Shown in pieces: positions 5,124 to 64,000 of a stretch of 64,000 nt of DNA. The DNA comes from Lingula anatina. Taxonomy: Eukaryota > Animalia > Brachiopoda. The notes under the pieces were generated by a model. That model saw only the letters and a program-made list of their open reading frames with translations, was not told the origin of the DNA and ran no database searches. Where the stretch lies: assembly GCA_051362555.1 (NCBI GenBank), contig CM120646.1, positions 11,408,001-11,472,000 on the forward strand, in the 5' to 3' direction. Position 1 is the first letter of the stretch; each line of letters opens with the position of its first letter. A program made the position numbers and the translations under genes.

Positions 5124-5197
5124 ATGTGAAGATTACCCAAACGTGAAGATGACCCAAACATGTGAAGATGATCCAAATATGTGAAGATGATCCAAAC
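5124..5197 (+). repeat. About four copies of a ~19-bp minisatellite (atgtgaagatgayccaaac) overlapping the start of the gene A leader exon
   Basis: Tandem units directly visible. Confidence 0.8.
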
Positions 5198-5237
5198 ACG
5201 CAGACAGCTGCTATCTTTGCGTTGCTGGTAATGCTGG
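5168..5237 (+). CDS. IgSF gene A, candidate leader exon (MIQICEDDPNTQTAAIFALLVML)
   Basis: Hydrophobic stretch ending at a strong phase-1 donor g|gtgagt; splices in frame to the V exon at 15277 to give ...ALLVMLACCSSEA-LQED, a plausible signal peptide. Confidence 0.6.
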
Positions 5238-5835
5238 GTGAGTTAAGTATTGATTCACATTTTGATTTGCCTGAACATCATAGCAGTGCTCCCATTCTTC
5301 AATGTGGGAGAGAAATAACAAGAATGTGGGGGTATAAAATTATTTACCTACGCAGTGAAATACTCTGGTCCACAGGTCCAAGCTTCCAGTCTTGATAAGA
5401 TTTCCACATTGTGCTGGTAATTATTAGGCTTGTGAATAATTTAAATGCAATTTGTAAGAGTAAAACAGCTGTAAGCGTCTGGTTGACTGTACTGTACTAA
5501 ATTATAAATCAGACCATGAGGTCTACTACCCCTCGAGGAATTGTGTCTGAGAAGGTTTCATTAGAGTCACGTACGTACGCCTTAACTTTTTCACCCTGTG
5601 CCAGCTGATCTCACGGGTGTGTTGCTTAAACATTAGCAATCCGTTCTATTCTGGTGACGTAGCTGAAGCTGCGTACGCAACTCTGTCCGCCATTATGTAC
5701 CTCTGCGCACCAAAGCACAATACCGGGGACATTCGTCAAGTTTTAATTTAAAAGCATGCCTGTCTGCGGAATAGTGGGCTGTTCCCGTCGTCAGGGTGAG
5801 GAAATAGGGATAAGGTTTTTCAAAGTGTTTTTCAA

Positions 5836-8800
5836 AGTTTGTGTAACAGTGTGAAAGACAGGCAACGATCTCGAGTCGCTGTTGATATTGTTCGCAATTA
5901 ATATTGGAGTATACCGCCTACATGTAAACATCAGACAAGGCGTTGAGATCGATAAAAGTGGAGGTTTATCTGAAAAATTAGATGCCATTTTTGTGAAATG
6001 ACTTATTAAGTGATGTGCATGTACCGAACATGTTTAAATTCTTGATTTTTATTATTTGAAACATCTTCATACACGGTCTCATATTTATATTTCTCTCAGG
6101 CCATACTCATTTTATTGTATAACATGGGTCTCTAAAGCACAGGACATTGTGAAAGTTAATTGGGTACAGAGACTTGTTATCCTTTATGCAGTTTTATAGC
6201 ATGGATGAACTAGAAACAGGCTTTACTTAGCTTTACTTAATTTACGAAAATTTAAACAAAATCAATCTGCAAGGCTTGCTTTGACTTGATGTTAACCTAA
6301 CACTGGTTTTAAAAGGAGAAATATAAATATGTTGGATGGTTTAAATCACCGACACCGTTCTGTTTTAACTTAACGTGGTCATATACACAGTAACACAGAT
6401 GATATTTATAAGTTGTCTGTCGTTCAGCACGCATTATAGGCGAGTAGCCAAACAGTGACGATGATCAATCCAAGTAAAATCTAGGCAAATATTGTTTACA
6501 AAATAGATCATGATGAATAAACCTACGCTTTAATAAATAATCACCACACGGTTCTGTTTTTGTCACTTAAAAGCTTTCGTTTTAAGACGCTCAATGATAT
6601 CAAAAATGATTCGACGCTTTAAAAATGGACCGGTTCAAGGGGCATTTTTTGTTTCAGCTTGGGACTTCAGGTAGAGGATTCAGTGTAGGTGTTTCCTCGG
6701 ATGATAACAGCATCACACCCTAGGTCTAAGCGAGTTGACTAGAAGCTTTTTGTCCAAGCATCCTATTCCTACTACTAAAGTAATACAGGTAACTCTAAAC
6801 CACAAAAGTTTGTGCGGTAAAAATATTTAAACTAAATGAGGTGCATTGACAGAGGCACAAGTACAATCCAACGCCAACGTGCAACAGGGGAAAGTCTGAC
6901 AGTGTATTACATAATATATGAAAGTGCGGTCAATATTAACAGTGTAAGACATCAGTTAAAGAGGAGGGGGTCTTACTATCTTTTGTTAAACGCGACTGTT
7001 ATTATCTCTCGAACAAGCTTAAACCATGCCTCATACAATTACTGTGTCTCCGGCTGTCGTGCAGAAACGGCATGTCGAACATATTTTGCTACAGTTACAA
7101 ACAGGGAAAACTAGCGACTTAGTTGTTCTAGATCGCTCTAGTAAGAAAGCATAAGTGCGGCGCCCGGGCAAAACAATCAACTACCCGGTATAACATTCAT
7201 ATCTTAGCGTTTACATATGACGCGCAAAGAGCTAAGTACATATGACGCGCAAAGAGCTAAGCAATTAGCCTTGACAAAGTGGTCCGTTTTTAAACAACAA
7301 CGAGAAAAAAGAACGCCTTGTCATAGTTATGAGACAAATCGCTTGCAACGTGCAACAAGGGGGATGGCTGACAGTGTGGTCACACTACATGTTTATGAAA
7401 GTACGTTGAATTAACAGTCTTCGACATCGCCCAAAGAGGAGGGACTTACTGTAGCCCTCAATCTATTGTTAAACGCGATCATTATCTTTTCTCATACAAC
7501 CTTAAACAAAACCTAAACAGTAAGATTGTTAAATTAGATAAGTGATGTAAAATCATATTGGAAATTTACGTTGACGACGGAGACTTCCATTCGCAAAGTT
7601 AATGAAACAAGACTGGTCCAAGTTAACTGCCCATATTGAATAAATCTTGGACTGTTAAACCTAAAGCCATGCTTCACTTTGGTAATAGTTATTTAGTAAG
7701 CTAGGTTTATTCACATATATCACAAAGCATAAGAGCGTTATGCTGCAAACAACTCATTTTGAACGCAATCGTCATCGCTGCCGAACAACCTGAAATCATG
7801 CCTATACAATATTAGGAGATGCACGTCGATTAAAAGATTCATCACCTGGGTGCCCAGCACTATTATGAAAAGGAAAAATGACTTGACGTTTCATGCACAA
7901 TCATCATCGAAAGCCTTATATCAATATGCTGCATGCGCAATCGATTTTTATCAAAATAAAAAGTGTGTTTCATACAAGCAAAATCTAACTTTCCTTTATA
8001 ACTGTTACTGAACAGCGAAGAGTTACATAAACCCAGTTATAAAATTACAAATGTAATTATGAGGCTAATTTCTCTAATGTGGAATGAAATATTTTGTTGG
8101 CTTTCAAATGATAGGACACTCACTTTAATCAAAAAAGAAGTTAGTTAATGTGCTCGTTCCCCTAACGCGGTGCCAAAAGGTCCCATCAAATAACCAGATA
8201 CACATCTGTCTATACTGGTGTTAATGATTTATACCATCTAATTTTTATCTTTTTTATGTGATTCTTAATGTCATCTAATTATTTACTTAATTCTTTAAAT
8301 AATTTATTTATTTATTTATCAAGCCCGTAGCCAGCAATTTCAAAGGGGGGGAGGTCTTTTTCTGAAAAAGTAGACCTTTTACCGAAAAATCCCCATGTAC
8401 TTATGTCAAATTTTACCCAGAGTGGACCTTTTTTCAGCAAAAGGGGGTTCTTTCGAACCTCTTGAACTCCCCCTGGCTGCGGGCCTGTTTATTTATTTAT
8501 TTATTTATTTATTAAGATTTTCTATTATTATCCTTTTACGGATTCGCTCTATTATTTTATATAAAATGTAACTTAATGTAGTAATTGAGGCAACACGTCA
8601 GCTTGTAATGTGAATAAATTGTTTTAATAATGTTTCTTTCTTTGTTATTTCTAAACAGTAATCAATTTTTACACAGGTCGCGATGATGAAAATTTGTGTA
8701 CGGAGCATCTTTAAACTTTTTGAGACGGGGTGATTTGTTGATCATGCTGATGTACGATGCTGATGCATGTTTATCAAATTCAATTTTTGACCACAGAACA

Positions 8801-9259
8801 CTTCATATTGAATTAAATAACTGATACTAAATTAAACTAGCAGTTATCTTGCAACACTTAAAACATGATCAGCTGCGCGTGCCAAGCTAGTGAACATAAG
8901 GATAGGTGGCCACGGGAGTGGCACGGGTTAGCATGGGTTCTAGCATCTTAAAGCTATAATCCTATCGCCGCAACAAACAATGGGCACTTTCTGGCTGATG
9001 TATCCTGCTGTTAACTACACCTAGTCACAGCGGATTGTCGCGCTCGCGCTGGACCACAGAAACAGGCGTCATGGGGTTCACTCGCCTAAGGTATTGTGTG
9101 TTATTACGCCTAAACTATTGTGTTTTTGCGTTCGAATTTTGAAGGGATTAGACGGCTTTCCATTGTTTGTCCGCCCCCTTCTATTCACAGGATAGGGATT
9201 AAAACATTCTGACGCTTTTAAAACGTCGTACAACGGAAACATAATTATTATTTCTACTG
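5836..9259 (+). mobile_element. Unclassified non-coding repeat family X, copy 1 (truncated), nested in the ISL2EU transposase gene
   Basis: Near-identical to the reverse complement of 56188-~59730 (mirrored ORFs 6836/58738 and 7217/58357); ends ...ctactg|TA. Confidence 0.85.
8320..8487. mobile_element. 168-bp MITE (hAT-like CAGG ends) in a (TTTA)n tract inside family X; second copy at 56964-57134
   Basis: 15-bp TIRs caagcccgtagccag / ctggctgcgggcctg. Confidence 0.75.
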
Positions 9260-11119
9260 TATATACACAGTCTGTTACATCTGTAAATACACCATTTTAT
9301 ATAATTTTATTTCCATGTTATTCATCATTGTAATTTTACATGTTATTTTTTTTATTTCAGAGACAAAGGCTTATTTGCATGACAGGACAAATCCTTCCTG
9401 GGCGCCAACAATAAATCTGGGTTATAGCCAGCGGGCTTCAACTCCACAAATTAACAGTGACAGATTCAGAAGGGCTAAGCAGTGTAAAGAAAAGAGAAAG
9501 ATTTCTGATGCAGTGTCTTCTCTTTTAAACCTCAAGAAAGTGAGACTTGAACTTGACAACGAAAGACAGGAAAACACTGAAACAAACAATGACTGCTTGA
9601 GTGAAAGCAACACAGGTTTAGATAATGATGATCAACCAACACTTGCCCATGAAACTGACTGTGAAGCTGAGGAATATGTCAATAACACCAAAGACACACA
9701 AACCCAGTTAACAGGACAAGTCACTGAGCAAATTGTAGCTGACAACAGGGCTAGAGTAGCAGAGTTAGAAGGAAATGACAAAGCTGGTTGTAAACGCCAG
9801 GGTCTGTACAGATTTGAAACTTATGAGATAGATCCTAGCAAAGCTATATTTTACACTGGTCTACCAAGCATAGATGTTAGTGTTTGAACTAGTGAAATGT
9901 CAAATGAGCAACAATTTTAGAAGCTTAAGCAAAGAAAATCAGTTTATGCTTTGTCTTATAAGACTTAGAATGAATTACACTTTTCAGGATATTGCAGATC
10001 AGTTAAATGTCTCACAAGCAACAGTTCAGAGAAGTTTTCATGCTACACTTGATGTTCTTAATGCGAGGCTAGGTTTCTTGGTCAACTGGCCAGAAAGAGA
10101 GGATCTTAGAGAATCTATGCCTATGGTGTTCAGAAAAGGCTTTGGTGAGAAAGTTTGCATTGTATTAGATTGCTTTGAACTGAGGATAGAAAAGCCCAGT
10201 GGTGCTTTGAGCAAAGTGTTCACATATTCAATCTACAAGCGTTCTCATACTGTAAAATATCTGCTAGGAATGGCTCCGCAAGGTGTAGTTACCTGGATAT
10301 CTGAAGGGTGGGGAGGACGAACGTCTGATAAGCACGTAACAGAAGATTCTACTTTACTAGAAAATCTATTACCTGGAGATATTGTTATGGTTGACAGAGG
10401 TTTTCTTATTGATGAATCTGTTAATTTTTATCAGGCATCGGTAGCTCGCCCAGGATTTACCCGTGGCCATCCTCAGTTGCAACCTCTAGAGGTGGAGAAT
10501 ACACGTTCCATTGCAAATGTCCGTATTCATGTTGAACGAATAATAGGGCTGGTTTGTAGAAAGTTCAAAATCTTTGAGAGCATTATACCTATAGAGTTCT
10601 TAAAATTGAAAAAAGGTGAAAATGTCCCGACCATAGACAAGATTGTCAAAGTTTGCTGTTGCTTGACAAATCTTTGTCTGTCTGTTGTGCCATTTGACTA
10701 GTATAATTTTGCAAAATGGATGATAACAACATGTATTCAACTCTGGAGTTGTGTTTACTGTTTGCAGTATTAATACACAAGAATAAGTTTATGCATAAGT
10801 AAATAGTCACAAATAAAGTTTCTTACAAGAAATTTTGATTTCTTTATTTATTCTTTATATTCATATATACGTTGTAATAAAAGCAGATACCATCGTATTT
10901 AAGAAATAAAACTTACAAGTTCATCATCACAAGAATTTATTATGAAACTTTGAGCTTTCGTTTAAGATAATCGGCTGGTGTTACATGAACATTTTGACAC
11001 TCTAATACCAGTCCTCAGGAAAATTTTCCAACATTTTGGAAATAATTTTTAAGAAGTTTCAGAATGACTTTGCATTATTTATTGCACACTTGTTTTAACA
11101 CAACACAGAATAAAGAAAA

Positions 11120-11685
11120 CACATCTAGACTAAATATAAACAAAAATGATAAAAGAAAATGAGCAAAATCATGGCTTGCTTATTGCACTATCAGTTGGAC
11201 TAGTATCTCTCTTGAACAAAATATACATCACAGGAAAAGTACAATCCTGGGATATAATGACACAAAATAACCTAAAATCTACAGACTTAGCTAGTTAAAA
11301 CACACCATTGCATTAGGGAATAAACATCTTTAAAGGTACTGGCTCAAAATAAGCTTCGACTTCACTAAAAGGCATGAGAGACAACCATTTTGAATTGCAA
11401 TTTTCACCATCAGAACCTATCACATTTGTAAAGTACATCTAGAATAAATTTAAAAATGATAAAACAAATGGTGAGCAAAATCATGGCTTAGGTATTGCAC
11501 TATTAGTTTTGATGAATATCTGTCTTGAATAAAGAAATTTAGATCACAGACCAAGTACAATCCTGGGGACTAATAATACAAAAGATCCCCAAAATCTACA
11601 GGCTTTGCCTTCTTTATATTCAGGGTATTGTAACAAAAACATTCCATTGCATTGAGGGAATAAACATCTTTATAAGTGACTGGAT
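11120..11685 (+). repeat. Diverged ~300-bp direct duplication in the spacer between the two ISL2EU genes
   Basis: acatctaga..aaaaatgataaaa..gagcaaaatcatggctt..attgcactat..aagtacaatcctggg..ccattgcatt..gggaataaacatcttta occurs twice. Confidence 0.7.
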
Positions 11686-11763
11686 CATACTAACATTACA
11701 TTACAATGCTAGTTTACTTCACTTACATGTTTTCAGAATTCAATTATCACCACCATAACCTAA

Positions 11764-14301: not shown

Positions 14302-14527
14302 AAGCACAACAACAACAACAACAAACAGATGTAACAAAAACAATAAAAACATAAATTTAACGGCAAATAATGAACTTTCTGTGAAGATTTGATGCAGGTC
14401 GATCGGCAGCACGTGTGAACAAAGAGGTAGATAATGGCGACTGAAGTTGGTGCGGGACTAGTGTGATGACGTCAAAGAATAGTACGGATTGAGTGAATGA
14501 AGCAAAACAATTCACTGGCTAAACAAA

Positions 14528-15043
14528 GGGACCGTTCACATGAAAAATCTATTTTCTAAAAATCTAAAAATCTATTGGCGGTATCTTATGATCACGGTCT
14601 GTGCGCTGCATACCCCACGGCGTAATTACTTTCAGCGCGAGCCAGTTACTTCGAAAGCTGTAATTAATTCTCGGCTTGGAGGAGATTCTGACACCTTGAC
14701 GCATGCGCAGTAGTATCTCTACTGTGGAGTTAAGCAGTTTAGTTCTCAAGCATACAGACGCGTAATATGGCCAGTGAAAGTGCTTGTTGTTGCACAAAAT
14801 CGACAAACACATTTTTTAAAGCAACTGCGACCGCCATTTACTTTCTAACTTCCTGCTGCGCATGCATCAAGGTATGAGAATCTCCTCCGAGTGCAGCTGA
14901 GAATTAATTACAGCTTTGGAAGTAGCTCGCTCGCGCTGCCAATAATTATGCCGCGGGGTATTCAGGGCACAGACCATGATCACAAGATACCGCCAATAGA
15001 TTTTTAGATTTTTAGAAAATATATTTTTCTTGTGAACGGTCCC
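14528..15043. mobile_element. Foldback MITE (PIF/Harbinger- or Zator-like)
   Basis: ~190-bp TIRs starting gggaccgttcaca / tgtgaacggtccc; 3-bp TSD aaa. Confidence 0.85.
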
Positions 15044-15276
15044 AAAGTTTTTTTTAATAAAGTTAAAATCGGTGGAATTATATAGAAATATTTCTTGACG
15101 AAATATAATATAATGATGTTGAACAATTAATAACCTCACAAAACACATTATATTGGACAAATTTCTAAGAAAATCTACATGCCATTTTACTAAGATTTAT
15201 TTTTTCTTTACACAAACAAACAGACACATTCACACACATTTAAATGGTCACGCACCAATTAAAACTTTGTTTCCAG

Positions 15277-15651
15277 CGTGTTGTTCTTCAGAGGCTTTGC
15301 AAGAAGACGCAAAAACTGTGTTTGTGCGAGAAAATGGCTCTGTAGAATTGAAATGGTTACTGTTTTTTGGTGAAAATGCAGGCAAGTCCTCGGTGAACGT
15401 CATGATCAAAAAGAGAGACGCTCTGCTTTGTCAGTGGGTAAAGGCACACTGGGAGGTAAACCAATGCGACCCAGGACTGAACTTAACAATTAGCCCAAAG
15501 GATGTGCGTGTGCCGGGCCCGACCAATATTACTGTCACATTTTCCTTCAAGAACAAGGGGCGTTCTGATGATGGGACCTACGAATGTCGATTTGTGATTG
15601 ATGAAAAATGGCACGAGATGCAAATGTACCCGAGATATTTAGTGACAACGG
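15277..15651 (+). CDS. IgSF gene A, V-type Ig exon
   Basis: ttccag| acceptor and g|gtgagt donor, both phase 1; V-frame motifs V.VRENGSVEL.W and DDGTYECRF. Confidence 0.85.
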
Positions 15652-16147
15652 GTGAGTTACTTGATTGTAAAATTGGTTGCATCTGCTAGTACCAGTATGC
15701 AATTCATATGGGGATTCTATATACATACTGTAAGGTAAAAAATATATAAAGAATATCTATTCTACACATCGTGGTCCATATATATAATTTCATAAGCAAT
15801 TAACCAGGATGTACCACATTTATTTAGTCATTGGGCATAACTGCTAAATTTTGTTAAATCTAATAATGTTTAAAATAGTAGAGATGTTATCAAACATTAG
15901 ATCGCCAAGTTTCAGAAAATTCTACACATCAGACAACAATCTGACACTTACAGCGATGAAAAGACCAGCTACATTGTGTATCAATGCTGTTATCTTTACT
16001 CGCAAGAATGAGATTGGTTTATACACCGAAACCTTTTAAGCCATTTAACCCGAAGGTTTGTTATTTTACATTATACGTTGGTAGCTCAAGTGCCTTTGCT
16101 TTTCAAACTTTGTTTTTTCAGCCTTAGGTGTTAATACCTAGGGCCCG

Positions 16148-16981: not shown

Positions 16982-17029
16982 CGGGGACAATGCACTTTAT
17001 TGAATTCACCCTTATCCACTTTTTCTCAG

Positions 17030-17329
17030 CAGAACCAAATGTGACTTTGAATGCAACCAAAAGCAACACACACAACACCAACTTCATCTGCCATGTGGGT
17101 GGTGGCCGCCCGAAACCTGTCGAAACGATCCTTTTAAAGAATGGAACCGAAATGTCTCGCTCCAGACTCATATGTCCAAAAGAAGCAGGCGGTACAGATG
17201 GTGATGAGGATTGCTTTTCTATCCATTCTGTTGAAAACATGGGTGGTCGATGCAAGTGTAGAGTGGAACATGCCGGTTACATTGTTGACAGTGCCGAAAT
17301 GAACATCCCCTTTACGACAGTAGATGAAC
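17030..17329 (+). CDS. IgSF gene A, C1/C2-type Ig exon
   Basis: ctcag| acceptor, c|gtgaga donor, phase 1; EPNVTL..FICHVGGGRPKP..KNG..CKCRVEH. Confidence 0.8.
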
Positions 17330-17516
17330 GTGAGAATGTGACTTTCTATAACATTAAAATCTCTCTCACACATTAATGCTGGTGATGTAAAACCAAATCT
17401 AAAATTAATGTTTATTTGAAATGCGTTTATTTTCAAAGGAAACTACTTTATTCCTAATTTTTGTATCAATTGAAATGTATTTATTTTTTTATCATTTTAA
17501 TCATCTTCAGCGACAG

Positions 17517-17693
17517 AAAATGAAAAGAGTGCTGCATGTCCTGGGATGAATGACTGTGAGTTTGCGGCCACTGTATTGGTATATGTTATAACAATACTAA
17601 CCTCAATTATCGTTTTCCTGGTAATATTTGTAGTGGTACTTGTTTACCTACAGGTACAAGTATGGCGAGGGGGAACACACATGAAAACATACG
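17517..17693 (+). CDS. IgSF gene A, stalk + transmembrane exon
   Basis: ENEKSAACPGMNDCEFAATVLVYVITILTSIIVFLVIFVVVLVYLQVQVWR..; g|gtaagt donor; homologous to 39600 and 53626. Confidence 0.8.
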
Positions 17694-17805: not shown

Positions 17806-18042
17806 GATTAAAGGAGTTGACGCTGTGTATGCTTACAGGTAAAATGTCTGAATACTCGTTTTCTTTAAATCGATTATTTGATAGATCGAGGTGGGAATGT
17901 TACGCAAGTCGAAGAAGAAACAGAGCAGTGTTTTGCCCACTATGCACGTGACACTGGTTCAGTTGAGATCATTCCCTTAGCAATGGAAAACGAACCTTGC
18001 ATATCGGAAGTAGATGACGTAGAGAGAGAGACCTGTTCGTAA
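17806..18042 (+). CDS. IgSF gene A, candidate cytoplasmic exons (17806-17838 and 17885-18042)
   Basis: Phase-1 exons reading GLKELTLCMLT and DRGGNVTQVEEETEQCFAHYARDTGSVEIIPLAMENEPCISEVDDVERETCS*; the first aligns with ELKLCM of paralog B. Acceptors uncertain. Confidence 0.5.
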
Positions 18043-22053: not shown

Positions 22054-22084
22054 ATGCTGATCTTGAGTTGCTGTTTAATTCTAG
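22054..22084 (+). CDS. IgSF gene B, leader exon (MLILSCCLIL)
   Basis: aaaATG context, hydrophobic codons, phase-1 donor g|gtgagt; joined to 30513 gives MLILSCCLILASHLAGA-LLDD. Confidence 0.75.
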
Positions 22085-23911: not shown

Positions 23912-23940
23912 CTAAAATGAACAAGGTTAGGCCTACAATG

Positions 23941-30512: not shown

Positions 30513-30902
30513 CTAGTCATTTGGCAGGGGCTTTGCTAGATGACCCAAATACCGTGTTTGTGCGAGAAAATGGAACTGCCAAACTTCATTGGACACTGTT
30601 TATTGGGGAAAATGCAGGCTTGGCGTCGGTTCTCGCCATGATCAAAAAGAGAGATACCCCCGGTACTCCGCTTTGTCAGTGGGTGAAGTTACGTGCACAC
30701 GGGGAGGACAACCATTGCGACCGAGGAATGAGCTTAACAATCACCCCAGAACATATGCGTGTACCAGGTCCAACGAACATTACTGCTACGTTTTCCTTTA
30801 AGAACAAGGGGCGTGTCGATGATGGGATCTACGAGTGTCGTTTTGTGATTGACGAAAAGTGGCACGAGATGCAAGTGTATCCGAGATATCTAGTGACAAC
30901 TG
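30513..30902 (+). CDS. IgSF gene B, V1 exon
   Basis: tttcag| and g|gtaagt, phase 1; VFVRENGTAKLHW..LCQW..HC..DDGIYECRF. Confidence 0.88.
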
Positions 30903-32060: not shown

Positions 32061-32360
32061 TTGAACCAAACGTGACCTTGAATGCGACTTACAGTAACAC
32101 ATGCATCACCGACATCATCTGCCATGTTAGAGGTGGCCGCCCAAAGCCTGTTGAAACGATCCTTATGAAGAATGGAACCGAAATATCTCGCTCCAGTCTT
32201 AAATGTCACGATGATGCAGACGAAACAGATGACAGTGAGGCATCCTATTGCTCTTCAGTCCATTCTGTTGAAAACTCGGGAGGTCAGTACAAGTGTCAAG
32301 TGGAACATGCCGGTTACGTTGTTGACAGCGCAGAAGTGGACATTCCATTTAGAACACAAG
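32061..32360 (+). CDS. IgSF gene B, first C-type exon
   Basis: 300-nt phase-1 exon; IICHVRGGRPKP..KNG..YKCQVEH. Confidence 0.85.
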
Positions 32361-32626: not shown

Positions 32627-33001
32627 GTAGTCATTTGGCAGCGACTTTGCAAGATGACCCACATACCGAGTTTGTGCCTGAGAATGGCCCTGTCGCACTC
32701 CGATGGCCACTGTTTATTGGTGAAAATGCAGGCAGGTCGTCGGTGAACGTCATGATCAAAAAGAGAGACGCTCTGCTTTGTCAGTGGGTAAAGGCACACG
32801 GCGAGTTAAACCAATGCGTGCCAGGAATAAAGTTAACAATCAACCCAAAACACGTGCGTGTACCGGGTCCAACGAACATTACTGCTACGTTTTCCTTTAA
32901 GAACAAGGGGCGTGTCGATGATGGGGTCTACGAGTGTCGTTTAGTGATTGACGAAAAGTGGCACGAGATGCGAGTGTATCAGATATATTTAGTGACAACG
33001 G
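32627..33001 (+). CDS. IgSF gene B, V2 exon
   Basis: tttcag| and g|gtgagt, phase 1; DDGVYECRL. Confidence 0.85.
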
Positions 33002-38539: not shown

Positions 38540-38839
38540 TTGAACCAAACGTGACCTTGAATGCGACTTACAGCAACACATGCATGACCAACATCATCTG
38601 CCATGTTAGAGGTGGCCGCCCAAAGCCTGTTGAAACGATCCTTATGAAGAATGGAACCGAAATATCTCGCTCCAGTCTTAAATGTCAAGATGATGCAGAC
38701 GAAACAGATGACAATGAGGCATCCTATTGCTCTTCAGTCCATTCTGTTGAAAACTCAGGTGGTCAGTTCAAGTGTAGAGTGGAACATGCCGATTACTTTG
38801 TTGACAGTTCCGAAGTGGACATCCCATTTAGAACACAAG
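38540..38839 (+). CDS. IgSF gene B, second C-type exon
   Basis: 300-nt phase-1 exon, very similar to 32061-32360; FKCRVEH. Confidence 0.85.
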
Positions 38840-38921: not shown

Positions 38922-39240
38922 AAAATAATAAAAGTGATACTTTATTGAAATTATATCAATCATCAAATCAATCGTTGTAATTTTAATTTTATATAAAATA
39001 ATAAAACTATTTTATAAATTTTATATAATATTTAGCATATATTTCACTTCCTTTTTTGTTATTGGACAAATAAAAAATTTGTGAATTTTTTTTCTATATT
39101 CATATAGCCATTTAAATGTATTTATTATGCTTGTCTTTTTTTCTTCATTACTGTGTTTATAAAAAAACTATATATACGATGTAAGTGGGGTTATTGTGAA
39201 AATAAATGCTTGCCTGAATACAACAACAAACTTAAAGAAA

Positions 39241-39405
39241 CGCTCTAGACTTCAATGCCAAATAGAGGTATTTGATACACATGACAATCTTATTGCTCTT
39301 CAATCCATTCTGTTAAAAACTCAGGCGGTCAATGGAAGTGCAAAGTGGAACATGCTGAGTACGTGGTTGACAGCGCAGAAGTGGACATCCCATTTAGAAC
39401 AAAAG
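39241..39405 (+). pseudogene. 5'-deleted, frameshifted third C-type exon
   Basis: RSRLQCQ.. then YCSSIHSVKNSGGQWKCKVEHAEYVVDSAEVDIPFRTK in another frame; acceptor and first half missing. Confidence 0.8.
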
Positions 39406-39599: not shown

Positions 39600-39923
39600 A
39601 AAATGAAACAAGTGCTCCATGGCCTGGGATGAATTACTGTGTGTATGCAGCCAATACACTTGTTAATGTTATAGTGATACTTACATCAATTATCTTCGTT
39701 CTCATAGTATTTGTTATGGTACTTGTGTACCTAATTTTGAGGCAAAGACGGAAACACCAAAACGTTACGGTAAGCTTTACTCATTTCAGTTTGACATTGG
39801 TGAAATAAACTCATTTTATAGATCGTTAAGATACTGCATCCATTTTCTGTTTCAATTAAGCTTCGTTGTAGAATAACAGAGTTAAAATTGTGCATGGTGA
39901 ACAAGTTAAAAGCATTTCAGTGA
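39600..39923 (+). CDS. IgSF gene B, transmembrane exon (39600-39769) and candidate tail exon (39861-39923)
   Basis: ENETSAPWPGMNYCVYAANTLVNVIVILTSIIFVLIVFVMVLVYLILRQRRKHQNVT|gtaagc; tail LRCRITELKLCMVNKLKAFQ* (acceptor choice uncertain). Confidence 0.75.
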
Positions 39924-40226
39924 AGGCCGTACTGGATTAGAAATAGTTCATGCGATGATTTCGAATGGTCTTTCTATCAATCGGTTCTTCTGTGTTCAAA
40001 CATACTACTGTTACATTATACACTCACGCATAGCGTCAAAATGTGATAGGGCTACCGTAAATATTTCAGGTACCGGGGCGATAAAAGATACTTGACTTGT
40101 GGACTTAACTCCGGAGACGGTCAAGCGAAAGTGCTTCCTGGCATTGTGCATGTGGAAAACAATGCACCTTGCGAAGAAACACAGCCTCCTGTTAGGTGTA
40201 GTCTTTGATGATGATGATAGATTAAA

Positions 40227-43837: not shown

Positions 43838-46050
43838 TAAAGCATTCCAAGCCATGGGTTTCCTCCAAACACTCATGTTTAATGAATTTTCACGATAACG
43901 ACATTTTTCTCCGACTTACCAACCTTTATTCTTCCCTTTCTAACAACCGGTAAAATCCAGGCTCGGAAAATAAAGCGATCCACATGGCAACCGATATATT
44001 TTAATCTGAATCATTGCGCGTTTGAAGAACTCGAAAACAATCGACGGAGAATTGTAATGGAAAAAAAAATTAAAAAGAAAGAAAAAAAGGAAAAACACTG
44101 TGTAAATACTACTAGACATTGGGAAGGTAGAGCATCGGAATCGGCTTTAAACGCTGTTAAATTGGCAATCATCTTTATCATTATAGTTTTATCCACACCG
44201 TGATTCTTTCCAAGGAATTTTGGATTCTTCAAACAGCGATGACAAAAACGGATCTGGAAGCGATGCAGCAAAATACAAATTGCCAGGAGTGAAAAAGTAA
44301 TCAGCATCTTTAAAATAAAATAATAAAACAAAAGTGTGCTACAGCTGATGCAACTGTCCAAATTAAGGGATGCATATGTGAAGACATATGTGAACAAGTT
44401 AATTCTGAAACCTGTATATGGCACTTGTTAGAAGCCACTCATTGATCGTTTGGTTTTAAATTTTAGGTCTTTTGAATGTTTCCTGATCCCTTAAGGAATA
44501 TTTGACATTTTGTTTTGTTTGTAAAAGATAATGCAGTCTATGATCCGGTTGATTTGATATACTAATAAACAATTTTTGCATCCATTGAGCCGTCTTTCAC
44601 TCAATAGTTCAAGTTTACCATGTTCACCAGCAGCGTCATATTCAAGATCAGGATAAATTATATAAATTATATTTAGAGCTGTTTCTTGAGACCTTTCTAC
44701 TAGGGTAGTCAATTCATTCGCTAACCCAATGTGCCAGACTTGAATTATTATATAAATGCAAATATTCCATATTCATACCGACAGCACATGCACATTCAGT
44801 ATATGCACATACCAATTGCAGTAGAGAAGTCAACAGTCACACTGAGAACGCATAGGTAAATAAATAAATGTCACACATTTGTTCAAAACGTGTCTTGCCA
44901 AAATACGTACGTTTAAGCGATCTCAGAGTGGGATTTACAAACGATTAACTGGACGATGTAACCTAGGACGTTTTGTGTAAGTGGGGTGAGTTTGGGCGTG
45001 ATTTATTGGCTGTATCTATTTTATTTAGAATTTTTAAAGCGAGTGGTATTATTTTTGTTTCATAAGCTCTCTTGTTTATAGGAGCCTATGGGGCATTAAT
45101 GACATTCGTTTTGAAAATTTCAAGCGTTTTTTTTTTTTTTTTTGCACAATGGAAGACTATGTAGTTTGGCATTCGAATGTCGTTTTACGTTTTTAAGTTT
45201 ATGCACGCGGTTCAAAATCTTGTAGCGATTTTACGACTATGGTTTTATAACCAGTCAAGGTTACATCCGGGCGTGTAATTTCTTAGTAGAGAAATAATGC
45301 GTTGTGCTAGGCCTGTTGGAGTATTTTGCTAACATTGCAGAATATGTTTCTGGTATTTTCTATTTACTTTAAAAGCAGAACACAACTGGAGAAGGTGAAA
45401 CAAACACATAAAGATTACTGGTTGATACTGGTAATACATGTACTTGGTAAGATGAATATCAATTTTATCGATCTACTAGTTCTGTATGTCAACAATGGTC
45501 TGAATGAAACTGAGTCTTTTAAGTTTATGAAAGTGTATGTCTCTGTATACATTAATTTTATCTAGAAAATAAGAAAATATGAGAAACAGATATACCTGTA
45601 TAGACACAAGTACTGGTAACCATACATTCTGCATTAAAACGGATTATTTACCCTGTCTGCATAGTGTTGCTGGTCGTGACGGCGGATAGGTTGTTGAATG
45701 GTTTAAACGCAATATCGAATTTTGGGGAACAAATGTTTTAATATTCAACATTGATCTACAATGTTGAATTTTAGTTGAAAATGCTAGTTATTTTGGAAAT
45801 TTGTGTCAACGTTAAAAACTTAACATTGAATCAAAATTGGCATTCAACGTTGAATGACTGTTGGTTATATACAGGTAACAACTATTCCATATTAAAATTA
45901 TAAACATTGACTCGCCATTAGAATTATAAACATTTATCATAAGTTGATTTCATATTAATTTTAAGATGAGACAAACAACAATGATTTCAAATTTCTATAT
46001 TTATTTTGTAAATTGTATATAAGAAAACTGCTACAAATTAAATGGAATTA

Positions 46051-51943: not shown

Positions 51944-51960
51944 ATTACTTGCAATATCAA

Positions 51961-52351
51961 ACTAGTCATTTGGCGGCGGCTTTGCAAGATGACCCAAATA
52001 CCGTGTTTGTGCGAGAAAATGGAACTGCCAAACTCCATTGTACACTGTTTATTGGGGAAAATGCAGGCTGGGCGTCGGTGAACGTCATGATCAAAAAGAG
52101 AATTACCCCCGGTACTCCGCTTTGTCAGTGGGTGAAGTTACGTGTACACGGGAAAAACAACCATTGCGACCCAAGAATGAACTTAACAATCAGCCCAGAA
52201 TATGTGCGTGTACCGGGTCCAACCAACATTAATGTTACGTTTTCTTTTAAGAACAAGGGGCTTTCTGATGATGGGACCTATGAATGCCGTTTTGTGATTG
52301 ACGAAAAGTGGCACGAGATGCAAGTGTATCAGATATGTTTATATACAACGG
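51961..52351 (+). pseudogene. IgSF unit C, V exon with open frame but deleted splice acceptor
   Basis: Paralogs read atc(a/t)aacttggtttcag|; here atcaaactagtc, i.e. 11 nt including the AG are missing; donor g|gtgagt intact; DDGTYECRF. Confidence 0.7.
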
Positions 52352-53130: not shown

Positions 53131-53430
53131 TTGAACCAATTGCGACCTTGAATGCGATTTTCAACAACCCATTCATCACCGGCATCATCTGCCATGTTAG
53201 AGGTGGCCGTCCAAAGCCTGTTGAAACGATCCTTTTAAAGAATGGAAGCGAAATATCTCGCTCCAGACTTAAATGTCAAAGAGAGGCAGTCAATGCAGAT
53301 GACAGTGGAGTAAAATTTTGCTCTTCAGTCCATTCTGTTGAAAACTCGGGAGGTCAGTACAAGTGTAGAGTGGAACATGCCGGTTACGTTGTTGACAGTG
53401 CAGAAGTGGACACCCCATCTAGAACAAAAG
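53131..53430 (+). CDS. IgSF unit C, C-type exon
   Basis: 300-nt phase-1 exon; IICHVRGGRPKP..YKCRVEH. Confidence 0.8.
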
Positions 53431-53625
53431 GTGAACATGAGCAGTGTGATTTCATATATTACAATCTCTTTCTCTCATATTGCATTGTGTTGGTAATATT
53501 TAAAACAGAACTAAAACTGATATTTACTTCAAATATCATTAATTAACACGGCAACACTTTTTATCTCATTTTTAGTTACCAATTCCATTAATTCTTTCAA
53601 TTTTTTATACCATCGTCACCGACAG

Positions 53626-53937
53626 AAAATGAAACAAGTGCTCCAGGGCCTGAGATGAATGACAGAGCGTTTGCACCCAATACAGCGGTTAGTGTTATCG
53701 TAACACTTGCATCAATTATACTTGTCCTGTTTGAACTTGTGTACCTTCGGTTGAGGCAAAGACAGACTCACCAAAACGTTACGGTAAGCTTTACTCATTT
53801 CTGTTTGACATTTGTGAAATAAACTCATTTTATAGATCGTTAAGATGCTGCATCCATTTTCTGTTTCAATGAAGCTTTGTTGTAGAATAACAGTGTTAAA
53901 ACTACGCATGGTGAACAAGTTAAAGGCATTTCAGTGA
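53626..53937 (+). CDS. IgSF unit C, transmembrane exon (53626-53783) and candidate tail exon (53875-53937)
   Basis: ENETSAPGPEMNDRAFAPNTAVSVIVTLASIILVLFELVYLRLRQRQTHQNVT|gtaagc; tail LCCRITVLKLRMVNKLKAFQ*. Confidence 0.7.
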
Positions 53938-56187
53938 AGGCCGTACTGGATTATAAATAGTTCATGCGATGATTTCGCATGGTCATTCCTATCAATCGGT
54001 TCGGATACATTACACTCACACCTAGCGTCAAAACCTGATAGAGCTACCGTAAATATTTCAGGTGCCGGGGCGGTAAAAGCTACTTGATTTGTGGACTTAA
54101 CTCGGGAAACGGTCAAGCGAAAGTGCTTCCTGGCAATGTGCATGTGGAAAACAATGCACCTTGCGGAGGAACACAACCTCCTGTTAGGTGTAGTCTTTGA
54201 TGATGATGATAGATTAAAGCATTACAAGCCAGGGTTTTCCGCCAAATACTCATGTTTAATGAATTTTCACGATAACGGCATCTTTCTCCGACTTACCAAC
54301 TTTTAATCTTCCCTTTCTAACATGTACACTCTTATTACTGTTGCGTTTCTGTGTGCGTTTGTTCAGTTGTTGTTGAAATATTGCATTATCATTACCAAAT
54401 TTGCCATCCGAAGTTTGAATAATTACAATCATTGCAGCATAGTTGAATAAAACCATAAGTAAGTAAGAATAAAGATATATTAAAAGACATATGTAAACAA
54501 ATTTAAGACAAAATATCTAAAATGCAAGGTTGAAAAAGTATCAGTTAATTCTGAAACTTGTATATGGCACTTGTTAAAAAGTCACTCATTGATCGTTTGG
54601 TTTTAATTTTAGGTCTTTTGAATGTTTCCTATTCCCTTAAGGAATATTTGACATTTTGTTTTGTTTGTAAAAGATAATGCAGTCTATGATCCGGTTGATT
54701 TGATATACTTATAAACAATTTTGCATCCATTGAGCCGTCTTTCAATCAGTAGTTCAAGTTTACCATGTTCACAAGCAGCGTCATATTCAAGATCGGGATA
54801 AATTATCTTAAGAGGTGTTTCTTTAGACTTTTCTACTAGGGTGGTCAATTCATTCGTTAACTCAAAGTACCAGGCTTGAATTATTATATAAAGGCAAATA
54901 TTCCATATTCATACCGACAGCACATGCACATTCAGTATATGCACATACCAATTGCAGTAGAGAAGACAACAATCACACTGAAAACGCATAGGTAAATAAA
55001 TAAATGTGACGCAAAACGTGTCTTGCCAAAATACGTACGTCTAAGCGTTTATCGCGTTATTACTACCGATGTCAGAGTGGGATTTACAAACGAGGAACGG
55101 GACGATGTAACCTAGGACGTTTTGTGTAAGTGGAGTGAGTTTGGGGTGATTTATTGGCTGTATCTATTTTATTTAGAATTTTTGAAGCGAGTGGGGTTGT
55201 TTTTTTTTCATAAGCTCACTCTTTTTTATTGACTCTATAGGGGCCTATGGGGATTTAACGACATTCGTTTTGAAAATTTCAAGCGATTTTTGCTTTAGGA
55301 AGACCGGTAATATTTTAGTGATCTCTCCCCCCCCCCACGCGTTGTCCCTCGACCGGTTGATTGAGCTTCCTTTCGTCCTTTCGTGTAGGTCCGCGGTATT
55401 TAGATAGCGGCCTTACTAGACCTCGGCTTTTTTCGTAGTGAATGCTGCCAAGGTGAAAGTCAGGAGTGTGATTTCATTTCCAAGTAGAGAAATTATGCGT
55501 TGTGCTAGGCCTATTGGAGTTTTTTTGCTAACATTGCAGAATATGTTTCAATTATTTTCCATTTACTTTAAAAGCAGAATCAAACTGGAGAAGGTGAAAC
55601 AAATACATAACGTTTACTGGTTGATACTGGTAATACTAGGTAAGATCAATATCAATTTTATCGATGCACTAGTTCTGTATGTCAACATTGGATTGAATGG
55701 TGCTGCAAGAAATTGAGTCTTTTGAGTTTATGAAAGTGTATGCCTCTGTAGACGTTAATTGTATCTTAAAAATAAGAAAATATGAGAAACAGATATACCT
55801 GTATAGACACAAGTACTGGTAACCTTACATTCTGCATTGAAACGCATCATTTACCCTGTCTGCATAGTGTTGTTGGCCGTGACGGCGGGTGGGTTGTTGA
55901 ATGGTTTAAATGCAATATCGATTTTTGTTGAAAAAAACCAGCAGGCACGCGACATTGCTTCAAAGTTTTAATATTCAATGCTGGTCTACATTGATTCGCC
56001 ATAAGATTTATCAACATTTACCATAAGTTGATTACATACTGATTTTAAGATGACACAAACAACATTGATTTTAAATTTCTATATTCATATTGTAAATTGT
56101 ATATAAGAAAACTGCTATAAATTAAATGGAATTACATACACTGTATATATTTCTGTATACAAAAACATGGCATAAAATAGGAAGTTA

Positions 56188-59100: not shown

Positions 59101-61621
59101 TGATCATCGTCACTGTTTGGCTACTCGCCTATAATGCGTGCTGAACGACAGACAACTTATAAATATTATCTGTGTTACTGTGTATATGACCACGTTAAGT
59201 TAAAATAGAACGGTGTCGGTGATTTAATCCATCCAACATATTTATATTTCTCCTTTTAAAACCAGTGTTAGGTTAACATCAAGTCAAAGCAAGCCTTGCA
59301 GATGATTTTGTTTAAATTTTCGTAAATTAAGTAAAGCTAAGTAAAGCCTGTTTCTAGTTCATCCACGCTATAAAACTGCATAAAGGATAACAAGTCTCTG
59401 TAGCCAATTAACTTTCACAATGTCCTGTGCTTTAGAGTCCCATGTTATACAATAAAATGAGTATGGCCTGAGAGAAATATAAATATGAGGCCGTGTATGA
59501 AGATGTTTCAAATAATAAAAATCAAGAATTTAAACATGTTCGGTACATGCACATCACTTAATAAGTCATTTCACAAGAATGGCATCTAATTTTTCAGATT
59601 AACCTCCACTTTTATCGATCTCAACGCCTTGTCTGATGTTTACATGTAGGCGGTATACTCCAATTTTAATTGCGAACAATATCAACAGCGACTCGAGATC
59701 GTTGCCTGTCTTTCACACTTTTACACAAACTCATGAAGGGTTAATAAAAGGATTCGCGTTGCGACATCTATCTCTTTCTTTCGGACAAGCAAATTAAGGG
59801 CTGACCCGATGTAAGCTTTCATAACTAATTTCTCTTTGACTGTACAGGGGTATATTGTAATTACCCCACTTGGTCGCCTCCATTGTCTTGTAACAGTGAC
59901 AAAGAATGTGTTTTCACACGCTAGTTTACATAACTCCTTTACCTTGTGTCTTTATCAAGGTTATAATCAGTTTGAATAGGTTGTCTTGCCTCACTTAAAA
60001 AGGGAGTTGTTCTTCACACTGGTTGTTGCCTAACTTATGCTAACCTACTTTGTACAATTATGGTTTTAATACATCGCCAAAATTATGACACTAGTGAACA
60101 TTGTGTATCAAACGTTTTGATACCATTAAATAAATGTGCAGGAAGGATTACGGAATGAGTTACTATTTACCCCCCCCCCACGCGCCCCCCAAAAAATGCT
60201 CTTTTGATTTCGAAATGAATTTGTTTTTAACGCAAAGAGGTCCAAAACCCCTTTCACGACTCAGTCATTGTACAGCATGTTGTAATCGATATTTAAAAAA
60301 ATTCATTTTTGTACCCCGCCTTTCAGTGTTTATTGTGGTGCTTGCTTTCATCGGGGACAGTGCCTGTTGAGGTTACAATGACCTCGCTAGCCTATCTCCA
60401 TAGGTTACTGGAATATATCTAAGTACACGTAAAGCTTTGTAAAGTCTCTTTTGTCACACATCATAGTTATTGAATTTTGTCTTGAATGAAAAAATACCCT
60501 CAAATTATCGTTTTGTGCTTAAACGTTTCATAACTTGGACCGAAGTTTGATATACAGTGTACTGTAGCTACAATGGCATTCCTCAAGTTGGGTCTGCTGG
60601 GGGAGGGGGGCATTTAAATGGTAAACGAAGAAGTCCACCTGTAAACAGCAGCGGTTTAAATGATCGCTATCTCGGTTCCTTTTTCTTTGACAGCATCATG
60701 GAAAATGTTAAGGGAGAAAGTCACACATACCCACGGCGTTGTTTTGTCTTCAGCATTTCCTCCTTCTTGCTTACTGCAATTATTATCGCCAATTAATGAA
60801 ACCGAGAAAGCAATTAAATGATGGCACATTGAATATAATCACTAGGTGCATTTCGCTGAGTGTTAACAAGATCTAGGGAAACATTTTATTTCAAAATAAA
60901 TTTATATGTGATTTTACCTCTGTCGTGTGTGTTATTTCAAACAAAACGATTTCCTGAAAGACCAACTTTAAAATGTATGTCTATTCAGCAAAATAATGTA
61001 ATTAAATACAACTATGAGTAATGTATTTAAACTACGGCCGTATATGCGATGGCCATGTGGGATTATAATTGCATACCTTGATGCAAAACAGTCTATCGTT
61101 TCTTCCACCGCGAGTCCCTTTAATTAATGTATTATATTACTCTTTACCCTTTTTATTTGACACTGTCTCCGTTTCTCTCCCCTTTTCCTTTCTCTTGTAA
61201 GAAGGAGGGCAAATAATTAAGCATTCGAAATATGCATCACCAATCTTCAGAAAAGAATGAGTGAATGAACCATTGGGCTGGCCCACAACGTCCGACACAG
61301 CAGAATAAATTAAGTAACAGCTTTCACAGATTTAACTGCATTTAGCTGTATAGCGTCACTATATACATAATCCGCTGCACGCGCGAAGCTGTTGAACAAA
61401 AGGATAGTTCTCTATGGAAGACCTTTTGTTTACATAAGTACTCTAAGGGGGCGTGCCTACCCAGGCGACAAGAGAATAAGGCTAGTCACTATATTCCGTC
61501 AAAATCGTTTAGCGACCCTATCATTATCACACTCCCTCTATTGTATTTTCTGACGTTATAATTGTATCTAATCTTCTTACGTTAGATGGAATAAATGCAC
61601 ACATACATAATCTTATGACTG
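56188..61621 (-). mobile_element. Repeat family X, copy 3 (apparently full length, ~5.4 kb)
   Basis: gaagtTA|cagt...actg|TAcctttaaaaag versus empty site gaagtTAccattaaaaag at 48099-48100. Confidence 0.88.
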
Positions 61622-62979
61622 TACCTTTAAAAAGATTTCTGATGAACATTTTAATATTGTTAATTGTTAAAACAATATGTCCAAAAGTAGTTTTCCAATG
61701 AGAATTCTAATAAAAACTTTTCATTTTGTTGTGTTCACAAAATTAAAATCTAGCCTAAAGGAAAATTTAGCAAATTTCAAATTATATCTCAACTTCACAT
61801 CGCTGTGGTCGCAGTCCCTTTTGTGATTTCGTGATAGTTTGATATCTCTGATGTAATATTTGGGTCTCGAATGAAAAAAAACGTGTAGTTTATTCAGTAC
61901 TGATTTTACTGTCTAAATTGTGTTTTATCACAATAATCAGTGACAATAATCAGTGACAAGCAAACTTAAGTCGCTCAAAAAAAAAAAAAAAAAAATGCTT
62001 CACACACTCGCTCACAAAATAACTGCTTCATACAGAAGACTGCCATTATTTTTACAACGTTAAACTTGTAAGTGATTAATTAAAGAAAAAAAAAAAACAG
62101 TGATGATTGAATTTGCAAAGTGGGTAAACGTTTCCACTGCTGTACACGTACATGTATGTTCCTTTTTGGGGTTAGACGATGGCGTACTTTTTTATCCATA
62201 GTTTCAAGAGAGTGATACTTTGCTACAAACTTCTTCATGTGGGACCATAATAAAATAATAAAATATAGTTTGTAATCTGTGCACTAAATATTCTAAGAAC
62301 ATGCCTGTGGCCTCATGTGCCGCACTAAATTAAAAATTCAATTATCGGTAGAAACATTTTTGTAATATCAGGTAAAAGATGCACTTTAAAATGCCCTTTA
62401 TTGGTTAGAGATGTGTAGTTTGTGAAATCGCATATAGATAATCTCTTCATTCTGGTGAAATATAGGGCAATGTCTTTTTAAAACAAATTGGTGTTTATAC
62501 AACTATACCTTTATGTGTGTCTTTTTTCTCTTATCTTTCTTTTACCTTCATGGTCTTTGGGAAAGCGCAGTTAGTTTAAGCACCCTTAATAGACCCAGAC
62601 GAGTTACGTGCTGCACCTACAAAATTAAAAATAAAAACAATTTAACTATAATTAAAAGAACTGTTTGAAAAGCGAAGGTGGAAGATTACAGTTAAGAAGC
62701 CGCGAGTATAAGAAAACTATTACAGATTACCAGTATAAACTCTTCCATTCAAATTAAATTAAAGTTATTCTTACTATCACAGTATCTTTGTCCGTTTATA
62801 TATATTTTTACGAATATCATAAACTATACAATTAAATTTCTGTGCCTAGCTGTACCTCTTCACACATTATTGTGTTCATTTTTTAAATTAATAATACTCC
62901 TAACCTTTCCATTCGAGACAAAGGCAAACGCATTTTTAAAGTGTGTATGTGTATGTTTGAGAAAGGGCTCCATGAGCTA

Positions 62980-64000
62980 ACTATTTAGCCGCAAACATTA
63001 TCTGTGAATATCTAGTGAAAAACCAATTAATGGACCTGGTACAGGGTACATCAAGACTATAAAACATCATTGGGACTAAGATAATTTTCCACGATAAAGT
63101 CGTTCATGATCATGAAAGCGTTTCCCCTTATACCACCGTGAACAGGTAGATGTCTTTAGCTGTAGGCAGATCGAAAGGCTTTCTTAAGTGAGCCCAGCAC
63201 ACTTAAAGTATCTGTTATACAAAGTTTAAATACAATGTACCTCTGCTGAGAAAAAAAAATATGTAACATTTAGGATTTCGTCGCTGTCATTCATAAAAAT
63301 TCAAACGGATTATTTACCCTCTCGGCATAGTGTTGTTGGTCGTGACAGAGGGGGATTGTTTGGTTGTTGAATAATTTATTTAAGTACAATATCGATTAGG
63401 GGAGAATAAAAGTGCACAAAGGAGGTACACAGATGATTCAAATACCTTTGCTAGTGCTTTGTTTGTTTTACTTTTTGGCGTATTCACGCGTAGCACTGTC
63501 AGGATAAATCAATCGCCCAAGGTTAACGCCATGGTGTTTTTCTTATGTAACTTGAGCATGTAATAAAAGGGCAAGCTCTTTTTGTAAATCGTTAAAATGA
63601 ATCCTAGGTAGCATCACGCCAACACCTCTGATAATTTTTATGAAACTTTCCACGCACATCTAACTTGGTTTCAGCTAGTCATTTGGCAGGGGCTTTGCTA
63701 GATGACCCAAATACCGTGTTTGTGCGAGAAAATGGAACTGCCAAACTCCATTGGACACTGTTTATTGGGGAAAATGCAGGCTTGGCGTCGGTTCTCGCCA
63801 TGATCAAAAAGAGAGATACCCCCGGTACTCCGCTTTGTCAGTGGGTGAAGTTACGTGCACACGGGGAGGACAACCATTGCGACCGAGGATTGAACTTAAC
63901 AATCACCCCAGAACATATGCGTGTACCAGGTCCAACGAACATTACTGCTACGTTTTCCTTTAAGAACAAGGGGCGTGTCGATGATGGGATCTACGAGTGT
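62980..64000 (+). repeat. Very recent duplicate of 29780-30838 (intron end + V1)
   Basis: Near base-for-base match from tatttagccgcaaacattatctg onward, apart from one ~40-nt deletion just before the acceptor. Confidence 0.92.
63675..64000 (+). CDS. IgSF unit D, V exon (runs off the window)
   Basis: tttcag| acceptor; only three differences from B-V1 seen by eye (ctt/ctc; ggaatgagc/ggattgaac, MS to LN). Confidence 0.85.

Follow-up and report, generated by a model that had tools for sequence, protein, structure and literature searches.

Does the genome of the brachiopod Lingula anatina hold a family of immune receptors built from variable immunoglobulin domains? We addressed this question on a 64-kb stretch of contig CM120646.1 (assembly GCA_051362555.1, forward strand), hereafter called the window, in which an earlier note had seen a tandem array of diversifying receptors made of a variable-type (V) domain, a constant-type (C) domain and a transmembrane (TM) segment. 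The window carries four such genes of the immunoglobulin superfamily (IgSF), with spliced transcripts, mosaic V exons and tails that are either long or very short. We propose that the products of this cluster act as cell-surface recognition molecules of immune type, a role to which we give a probability of about one half.

Results

Four tandem genes on one strand

Six-frame translation, self-alignment and splice-site analysis revealed four tandem genes, A to D, on the + strand, each laid out as leader-V-C-TM-tail (Table 1). Gene A consists of L1-V1-C1-TM1 and a long tail (5168-18042), gene B of L2-V2-C2-V3-C3-(broken C)-TM2 and a short tail (22054-40084), and gene C of L3-V4-C4-TM3 and a short tail (45344-54076); gene D, represented by L4-V5, ends at the window edge (64000). 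The exon inventory given earlier for this DNA, with five V exons, four intact C exons and a broken one, and three TM exons, all on the same strand, is borne out by translation, self-alignment and tblastn. The latter, run with an L. anatina relative described below, recovered the identical five V and five C pieces and no further V or C copy on either strand of the window. The inventory has to be corrected for the leaders, of which two had been counted and four candidates are found (starting at 5168, 22054, 45344 and 55543), L3 and L4 matching the leader of the L. anatina protein P0002 with expectation values (E) of 2e-7 and 5e-7. It has also to be extended by the tail exons, which encode 52 codons of acidic tail in gene A and four-codon tails in genes B and C.

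Leader, V, C and TM exons are separated by phase-1 introns, and the TM-tail intron is of phase 1 in gene A and of phase 0 in genes B and C. The motif DxGxYxC occurs six times in the six-frame translation, versus a mean of 0.1 in 20 shuffles. The F-strand motif CxVxH claimed for the C domains is present as CxVEH in all five C pieces; taken alone, CxVxH is not above chance in the six-frame translation (12 occurrences versus 6.55 in shuffles). The acceptor of V4 was lost by an 11-base deletion beside a repeat, and gene C looks damaged.

A V domain predicted to fold without its canonical core

V2 was modelled by AlphaFold2 on a seven-row alignment, with a pLDDT (predicted local distance difference test score) of 84.5. 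The model displays nine strands (A', B, C, C', C'', D, E, F and G), and the V exon is predicted to adopt an IgV (V-set) fold with C' and C''. Foldseek matched it to IgV domains including those of CD96, JAML, CD155, MPZ and PD-L1; among the matches listed (best 50), all rows shown but one were Ig V-type chains, with 6-18% identity. Comparison by VIA with 48,161 chains gave B7-H3 as best match (Z 11.5, root-mean-square deviation 2.3, 103 aligned residues), together with about 30 ties that include CD166, the nectins and VCBP3, the latter ranking fourth (Z 11.1). A viral fold library yielded generic Ig-like matches only. Such model-based fold matches would not by themselves show any function. No Alr structure appeared in the fold-search lists, which excludes nothing, and a two-copy prediction of V2, made without alignment, scored 0.01 and is evidence neither way. 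At the sequence level, the V profile found nothing under E 0.55 among the sequences of solved structures, and none of the five V exons of the window reached the Pfam V-set gathering score of 26 bits, the best being V4 with 20.8 bits.

The canonical IgV core, i.e. the B-F disulfide and the C-strand Trp ("pin"), is not found in the V domains of the window. The B-strand Cys site is occupied by Trp in six of the seven sequences compared, the C-strand Trp is absent from all seven and the F-strand Cys is kept in all seven. The register placing Trp26 on the canonical B-strand Cys is given by global hhalign and by the Cys that V4 displays at that very site, which arises from one base. Gly20 in the A'-B turn and Asp102, Gly104, Tyr106 and Cys108 of the D-x-G-x-Y-x-C tyrosine corner are invariant in the seven sequences. 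The model thus predicts an IgV tip domain with a buried Trp in place of the B-strand Cys and with the C-strand Trp gone. A second predicted feature is a C'-C'' disulfide between Cys54 and Cys68, suggested by the hairpin register, that would steady the edge.

C domain, stalk and tails

The Pfam C1-set gathering score (21 bits) was passed by three of the four intact C exons (29.2-30.4 bits), exon C1 (16.1 bits) and the L. anatina protein P0001 (15.0 bits) lying below it. The best solved matches of the C profile were beta-2-microglobulin, the IgM constant domain and chains of the major histocompatibility complex (E ~0.001). A single-sequence model of P0001, the only one to include the C domain, reached a pLDDT of 43. 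Judged from Pfam scores only, the C domain would be C1-set-like, and its topology may be of C1 type, with a D strand, or of C2/I type.

A short stalk and a helix come after the C exon. The gene A tail is related to that of P0001 (49% over 41 aa, E 9e-11), with which it has one Tyr in common. The tail exons of genes B and C also contain, at 40071-40208 and 54063-54200, an open frame of 45 codons whose phase is not fed by the TM exon; it may be a former longer tail. Homology of this frame to the gene A tail was considered and dismissed as not significant, 252-817 of 2000 shuffles scoring as well.

Transcripts and splicing

Reads of runs X3, X4 and X5 and of the RNA run X14 were aligned to gene C at 80% likeness. 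The first three are listed as "DNA?"; we read them as transcript contigs because they show depth on exons and zero or near zero depth over non-repeat introns. The V-to-C joint (GT..AG at 52350/53130) was found in X5 and, exactly, in one X14 read, and paralogous V-to-C joints near it occurred in X3, X4 and two X14 reads. The C-to-TM joint was seen in X3, and the TM-to-tail joint of the gene C copy (GT..AG, 53782/54061) in X5. One X3 contig matches V2 with a single difference and then runs into a C exon, X3 record 6 fits C3 joined to TM2, the broken C exon being skipped according to depth and diagnostic bases, and X3 record 7 agrees with C1 in its length and number of mismatches. Since X3 carries V2-C, C3-TM2 and C1 pieces by diagnostic bases, genes A and B are expressed. 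The C exon of X4 is of C2/C3 type, but four of 22 listed bases are unmatched, and it would stem from a different allele or from a copy outside the window.

As to the V-C and V-C-V-C layouts described earlier, V-C splicing is seen in the reads, and V-C-V-C stands as the order of exons in the DNA of gene B. None of the ten joints listed on gene C was a C-to-V joint, a test weakened by V3 being only 84% like V4, and the four-domain V-C-V-C protein is putative. In a first, repeat-swamped read alignment, none of the joints listed (15 of 199) lay at an exon edge.

At base 52041, the B-strand site of V4, every RNA-like record listed in the four runs reads G, i.e. a Trp codon, and none the Cys base. 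An abundant transcribed repeat, with very high depth in all four runs, ends directly upstream of V4 (51846-51944, an ACG run followed by a hairpin) and could supply, near 51918, a cryptic acceptor of fitting phase. A contig of X5 with a depth of 30 joins the V end (52351) to the middle of the C exon (53316); this joint could come from a C paralogue that has diverged, or from use of an alternative acceptor.

Copies that exchange sequence

The 25 informative sites of V1-V4 fall into three unbroken blocks (16, 7 and 2 sites), an arrangement equalled by none of 200,000 permutations, and by 14 of 200,000 once neighbouring sites are merged. Between V2 and V3, 46 of 235 bases differ in the 5' part versus 3 of 95 across strands E-F, the near-identical tract lying at about 32862-32956 in V3 and about 30763-30857 in V2. 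Read from these alignments, the E-F stretch is a conversion or crossover tract, the V exons are mosaics and the copies of the array exchange sequence. V2 and V5 are 99% identical over the exon and 98.3% over the intron, while their leader candidates and flanks differ. As L. anatina has a reported heterozygosity of 1.6% (PMC4595640), to which this divergence is near, the ~1 kb shared by V2 and V5 is possibly a haplotype mis-join, although the differing flanks and leaders weigh against it. An assembly artefact is unlikely for the array copies, which are 64-91% identical.

Ratios of nonsynonymous to synonymous substitutions (dN/dS), from Nei-Gojobori counts without a site model, range between paralogues from 0.36 to 0.84 for V (10 pairs), from 0.41 to 1.50 for C (6 pairs) and from 0.51 to 0.73 for TM (3 pairs). 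Purifying selection is significant in the two tested pairs with gene A (V1-V2, p 1e-4; C1-C2, p 0.005), and the four pairs tested within B/C/D show no departure from neutrality. Of the "diversifying" character first ascribed to the array, exchange of sequence between copies can be retained; positive selection on the paralogues is rejected as unshown. That we deal with a transcribed V-C-TM IgSF cluster with fast turnover is supported.

Between individuals, the words of 30400-33100 are found at shares of 0.67 and 0.54 in two runs, which are possibly the source and not independent, and of 0.05-0.08 in three other genome-sized runs. The four longest exon-covering X6 pieces listed, out of more than 10,000, differ by 10-16%. 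This uncontrolled comparison suggests divergent haplotypes between individuals, and the divergent reads may also be paralogues beyond the window or belong to another species under the same label.

Relatives found only in Lingula anatina

The V profile retrieved P0001 (L. anatina LOC106165109) from 3247 candidates of 227-2000 aa and P0002 (L. anatina LOC106165093) from 77 candidates of 59-226 aa, each as the only protein found in its set; both are uncharacterised, and the literature searched ascribes a function to neither. With P0001 as query, only P0001 itself was returned among 1904 candidates. An index-free search of 1.84 billion representatives gave eight matches at E up to 0.001, of which P0002 (E 4e-63) is the only full-length relative; the single match below 1e-30 is from L. 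anatina. The others, P0003-P0009, were rejected as relatives, two being repeat-rich canonical V-set proteins whose match spans ~30 residues about the F strand, and the other five being repetitive and of no evident relation.

The window copies are 62-76% (V) and 56-59% (C) identical to P0001 and P0002, neither of which closely matches any of them. P0001 has the complete layout of gene A, leader-V-C-TM with a gene A-type tail, in P0002 a leader of L3/L4 type is followed by a V exon, and both display the B-strand Trp. No true relative outside L. anatina was found in the libraries searched, whose coverage of other brachiopods is uncertain. It had been stated at the outset that the family could not be assigned to any known gene, and we agree: there is no named orthologue, and the true relatives are these two proteins. 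Nor did our searches turn up a conserved one-to-one orthologue among adhesion molecules, a result named beforehand as one that would speak against such a family.

Gerdol et al. are said to have devoted a survey to L. anatina immunity in 2018, which may mention these genes. Our literature search found no description of the family, no variable IgSF receptor cluster in a brachiopod and nothing pairing "Lingula anatina" with "C1-set"; the supplements of the Lingula genome papers, outside this search, could list the genes. The word "immunoglobulin" is absent from the main text of PMC4595640 and PMC13121700.

Features and repeats of the window

Table 1. Exons of genes A to D, with positions in the window.
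Feature	Position	Strand	Remarks
L1, gene A leader exon	5168..5237	+	ATG to phase-1 GTGAGT donor; L1-V1 splice putative
V1, gene A V exon	15277..15651	+	B-strand Trp, C-strand Trp absent
C1, gene A C exon	17030..17329	+	C1-set 16.1 bits (cut-off 21)
TM1, gene A stalk and TM exon	17511..17693	+	phase-1 end
Gene A cytoplasmic exon	17885..18042	+	52 codons, acidic; splice putative
L2, gene B leader candidate	22054..22084	+	short, 3' end L1-like; splice putative
V2, gene B V exon	30513..30902	+	modelled as IgV
C2, gene B C exon	32061..32360	+	C1-set 30.4 bits (cut-off 21)
V3, second V exon of gene B	32627..33001	+	acceptor intact; transcript inclusion putative
C3, gene B C exon	38540..38839	+	C1-set 29.2 bits
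Broken C exon, gene B	39236..39405, start approximate	+	3' half only, frameshifted, without acceptor
TM2, gene B TM exon	39600..39769	+	phase-0 end; acceptor position putative
Gene B tail exon	40070..40084	+	stop after four codons in spliced frame; equivalent junction seen on gene C copy
L3, gene C leader candidate	45344..45446	+	matches P0002 leader
V4, gene C V exon	51964..52351	+	acceptor deleted, repeat just upstream, Cys at B-strand position
C4, gene C C exon	53131..53430	+	C1-set 29.4 bits
TM3, gene C TM exon	53626..53783	+	four codons shorter than TM2; Glu in helix
Gene C tail exon	54062..54076	+	stop after four codons; GT..AG joint 53782/54061 in run X5
L4, gene D leader candidate	55543..55639	+	matches P0002 leader
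V5, gene D V exon	63675..64000, cut by window end	+	323/326 bases identical to V2

The array is rich in repeats. The first intron of gene A contains an ISL2EU-like (PHIS) DNA transposon (9222-14457) with two open reading frames (ORFs), one with DDE_Tnp_4 and HTH (9874-10698, + strand, E 4e-45) and one with YqaJ and PHD (11767-13332, - strand, E 1e-19), a two-ORF design described for ISL2EU (PMC4482050); clear terminal repeats were looked for in this element and none were found. Two copies of a 3.4-kb element, 97-98% identical and in opposite orientation, lie between leader and V in the introns of gene A (5836-9261) and gene D (56186-59731), and an older copy (76-85%) lies in gene B at about 34589-36572. 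Two elements resembling miniature inverted-repeat transposable elements carry long terminal inverted repeats, at 14521-15050 (arms of 156 + 39 nt) and 36609-38296 (715-nt arms at 87%). A 19-base tandem repeat (5122-5198, 4.2 copies) spans the start of L1 and supplies several ATGs, so that the true start of L1 is uncertain. Finally, ORF fragments at 23345-23728 and 18496-18900 resemble by eye the 3' ends of retroelements of the long interspersed nuclear element type; the only Pfam match was zf-RVT (E 0.25) for the first fragment, the second having none.

Discussion

How could such a cluster work? We propose that the V tip would bind a partner common to the family through a conserved C/C'/F/FG face, by analogy with proteins of B7, CD200 and nectin type, and that insertions in loops and changes near this face would adjust binding strength or allow escape from a microbe. 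In keeping with a conserved face, the FG loop is nearly invariant, and invariant positions make up 5/7 of strand C and 5/6 of C' versus 3/10 of B, 3/6 of D and 1/9 of G, a post hoc count over six sequences that pools buried and exposed residues; conversion, moreover, inflates conservation in strands E-F. Gene A, with its long tail, could signal via its conserved Tyr-bearing tail, and the short-tailed B/C type could be a ligand or a decoy. Unequal crossing-over and gene conversion would build and break copies, gene C being likely in the course of dying. Clustering, copy turnover and pseudogenes are also described for VCBP (PMC2632668) and Alr (PMC9546547), and an immune role is plausible for this clustered, lineage-restricted IgSF receptor family.

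Several observations weigh against an immune function. Immunoreceptor tyrosine-based activation and inhibition motifs (ITAM and ITIM) and YxxPhi are all absent from the tails of gene A and P0001, and the helix of the short-tailed forms lacks a basic residue, TM2 having none and TM3 a Glu. The logic of vertebrate paired receptors is therefore inapplicable as such, and we rejected on these grounds a classical pair made of an ITIM-bearing long form and a charged-TM short form. None of the six tested pairs has a dN/dS significantly above 1. Finally, RNA runs X8 and X11, of each of which ~6% was read, gave near-zero depth over the exons. We also considered a rearranging antigen receptor and rejected it, as the V exon includes the G strand and ends in a donor joined to C in RNA and the FG loop hardly varies; recombination signals were not searched for.

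The conserved C/C'/FG face and the tails devoid of an immune tyrosine motif would also suit non-immune genes of adhesion or cell identity, in the style of nectin, JAM, MPZ, Dpr/DIP or gamete recognition, that were locally duplicated under relaxed constraint. Nectins, MPZ, CD166, JAML and Dpr/DIP are indeed among the fold matches, with Z scores tied with those of immune proteins. We nevertheless find this hypothesis doubtful, as no conserved orthologue came out of the searches beyond L. anatina, and V dN/dS values of 0.6-0.85 among B/C/D, together with broken copies and mosaic exons, set the cluster apart from conserved adhesion genes. One could also suppose that gene A alone is functional and that B, C and D are drifting, still-transcribed duplicates. 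Significant purifying selection confined to the tested pairs with gene A, four neutral-like B/C/D pairs, the broken C exon, the lost V4 acceptor and the four-codon tail are in keeping with this. However, V2, C2, V3 and C3 still have their frames open and every Cys and splice site in place, three contig sets contain correctly spliced transcripts of B type and C2-C3 has a dN/dS of 0.41, with counts too small for power; we hold this to be the least probable of the explanations weighed here.

Another hypothesis lies in allorecognition, already suggested earlier for this DNA, with a determinant like Hydractinia Alr1/Alr2 that has very polymorphic alleles and binds in trans to its own type only. Lingula is solitary, and this counts against it. 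As in Alr domain 1 (PMC9546547), neither the B-strand Cys (replaced by Trp) nor the C-strand Trp is retained, and the low word shares and divergent X6 pieces reported above would fit high polymorphism, but those reads may be out-of-window paralogues or another species. The best Atlas feature match to V2, an unnamed and mostly cnidarian cluster (0.95), is a lead only. On the other hand, strands C and C' are the least variable among the paralogues, opposite to Alr2, in which the C/C' side is the focus of variation and positive selection (PMC8282982); I-set domains, an Fn3-like spacer and ITAM/ITIM are absent here, and the F-strand Cys is kept. Such a determinant is unlikely. A wider version, in which the cluster is the bilaterian counterpart of the Alr locus, i.e. 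a highly polymorphic self/non-self complex with C1-type domains, diversified by conversion between neighbours, whose V domains lost the core disulfide and Trp independently or by deep descent, strikes us as improbable too, though a little less so.

Comparison with known systems places the immune-type reading in context. Hydractinia Alr genes are likewise clustered, divergent, single-pass IgSF genes accompanied by pseudogenes, with long and very short tails (PMC9546547; PMC8282982), and in their V domain, too, both B-F disulfide and C-strand Trp are missing and an aromatic residue occupies the site of the B-strand Cys. Huene et al. 2022 (PMC9546547) report this replacement for Alr domain 1 and state that they know of no other V- or I-set domain without both features. 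Unlike the window genes, Alr has I-set domains and an Fn3-like spacer, no F-strand Cys and often ITAM/ITIM, and C/C', variable in Alr2, is conserved among the window paralogues. Convergence is taken as the default explanation of this likeness.

The V-C proteins of vertebrates (B7/butyrophilin, CD200, nectin, SIRP) share the V-C-TM layout with one domain per phase-1 exon, the IgV fold (Z ~11) and a membrane-proximal, C1-set-like domain with CxVxH; they differ by an identity of only 6-20% and by keeping the Cys-Trp-Cys core. Amphioxus VCBP (PMC2632668) likewise forms a small V-gene cluster with copy turnover, pseudogenes and repeat-rich introns, but encodes V-V-chitin-binding proteins, in contrast to the membrane V-C proteins found here. 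Sponge SAML/RTK proteins are another invertebrate tandem of V and C1-type domains (PMC11926128), and that paper states that C1-set was previously unreported in non-vertebrates; the sponge domains keep the Cys-Cys-Trp triad, and the C1 call in our window is a matter of Pfam scores only.

On present sequence-level grounds, the cluster is one more lineage-specific receptor expansion. It also offers a second case, beyond Hydractinia, in which a V-type domain is predicted to fold with neither the B-F disulfide nor the C-strand Trp, and because such V domains score under Pfam cut-offs, comparable families may be overlooked on a wide scale. Should the C domain indeed belong to the C1-set, a lophotrochozoan V-C1 receptor would join a short invertebrate list. 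For the brachiopods, a poorly studied phylum, the array provides a concrete locus as candidate in the recognition of self/non-self or of pathogens.

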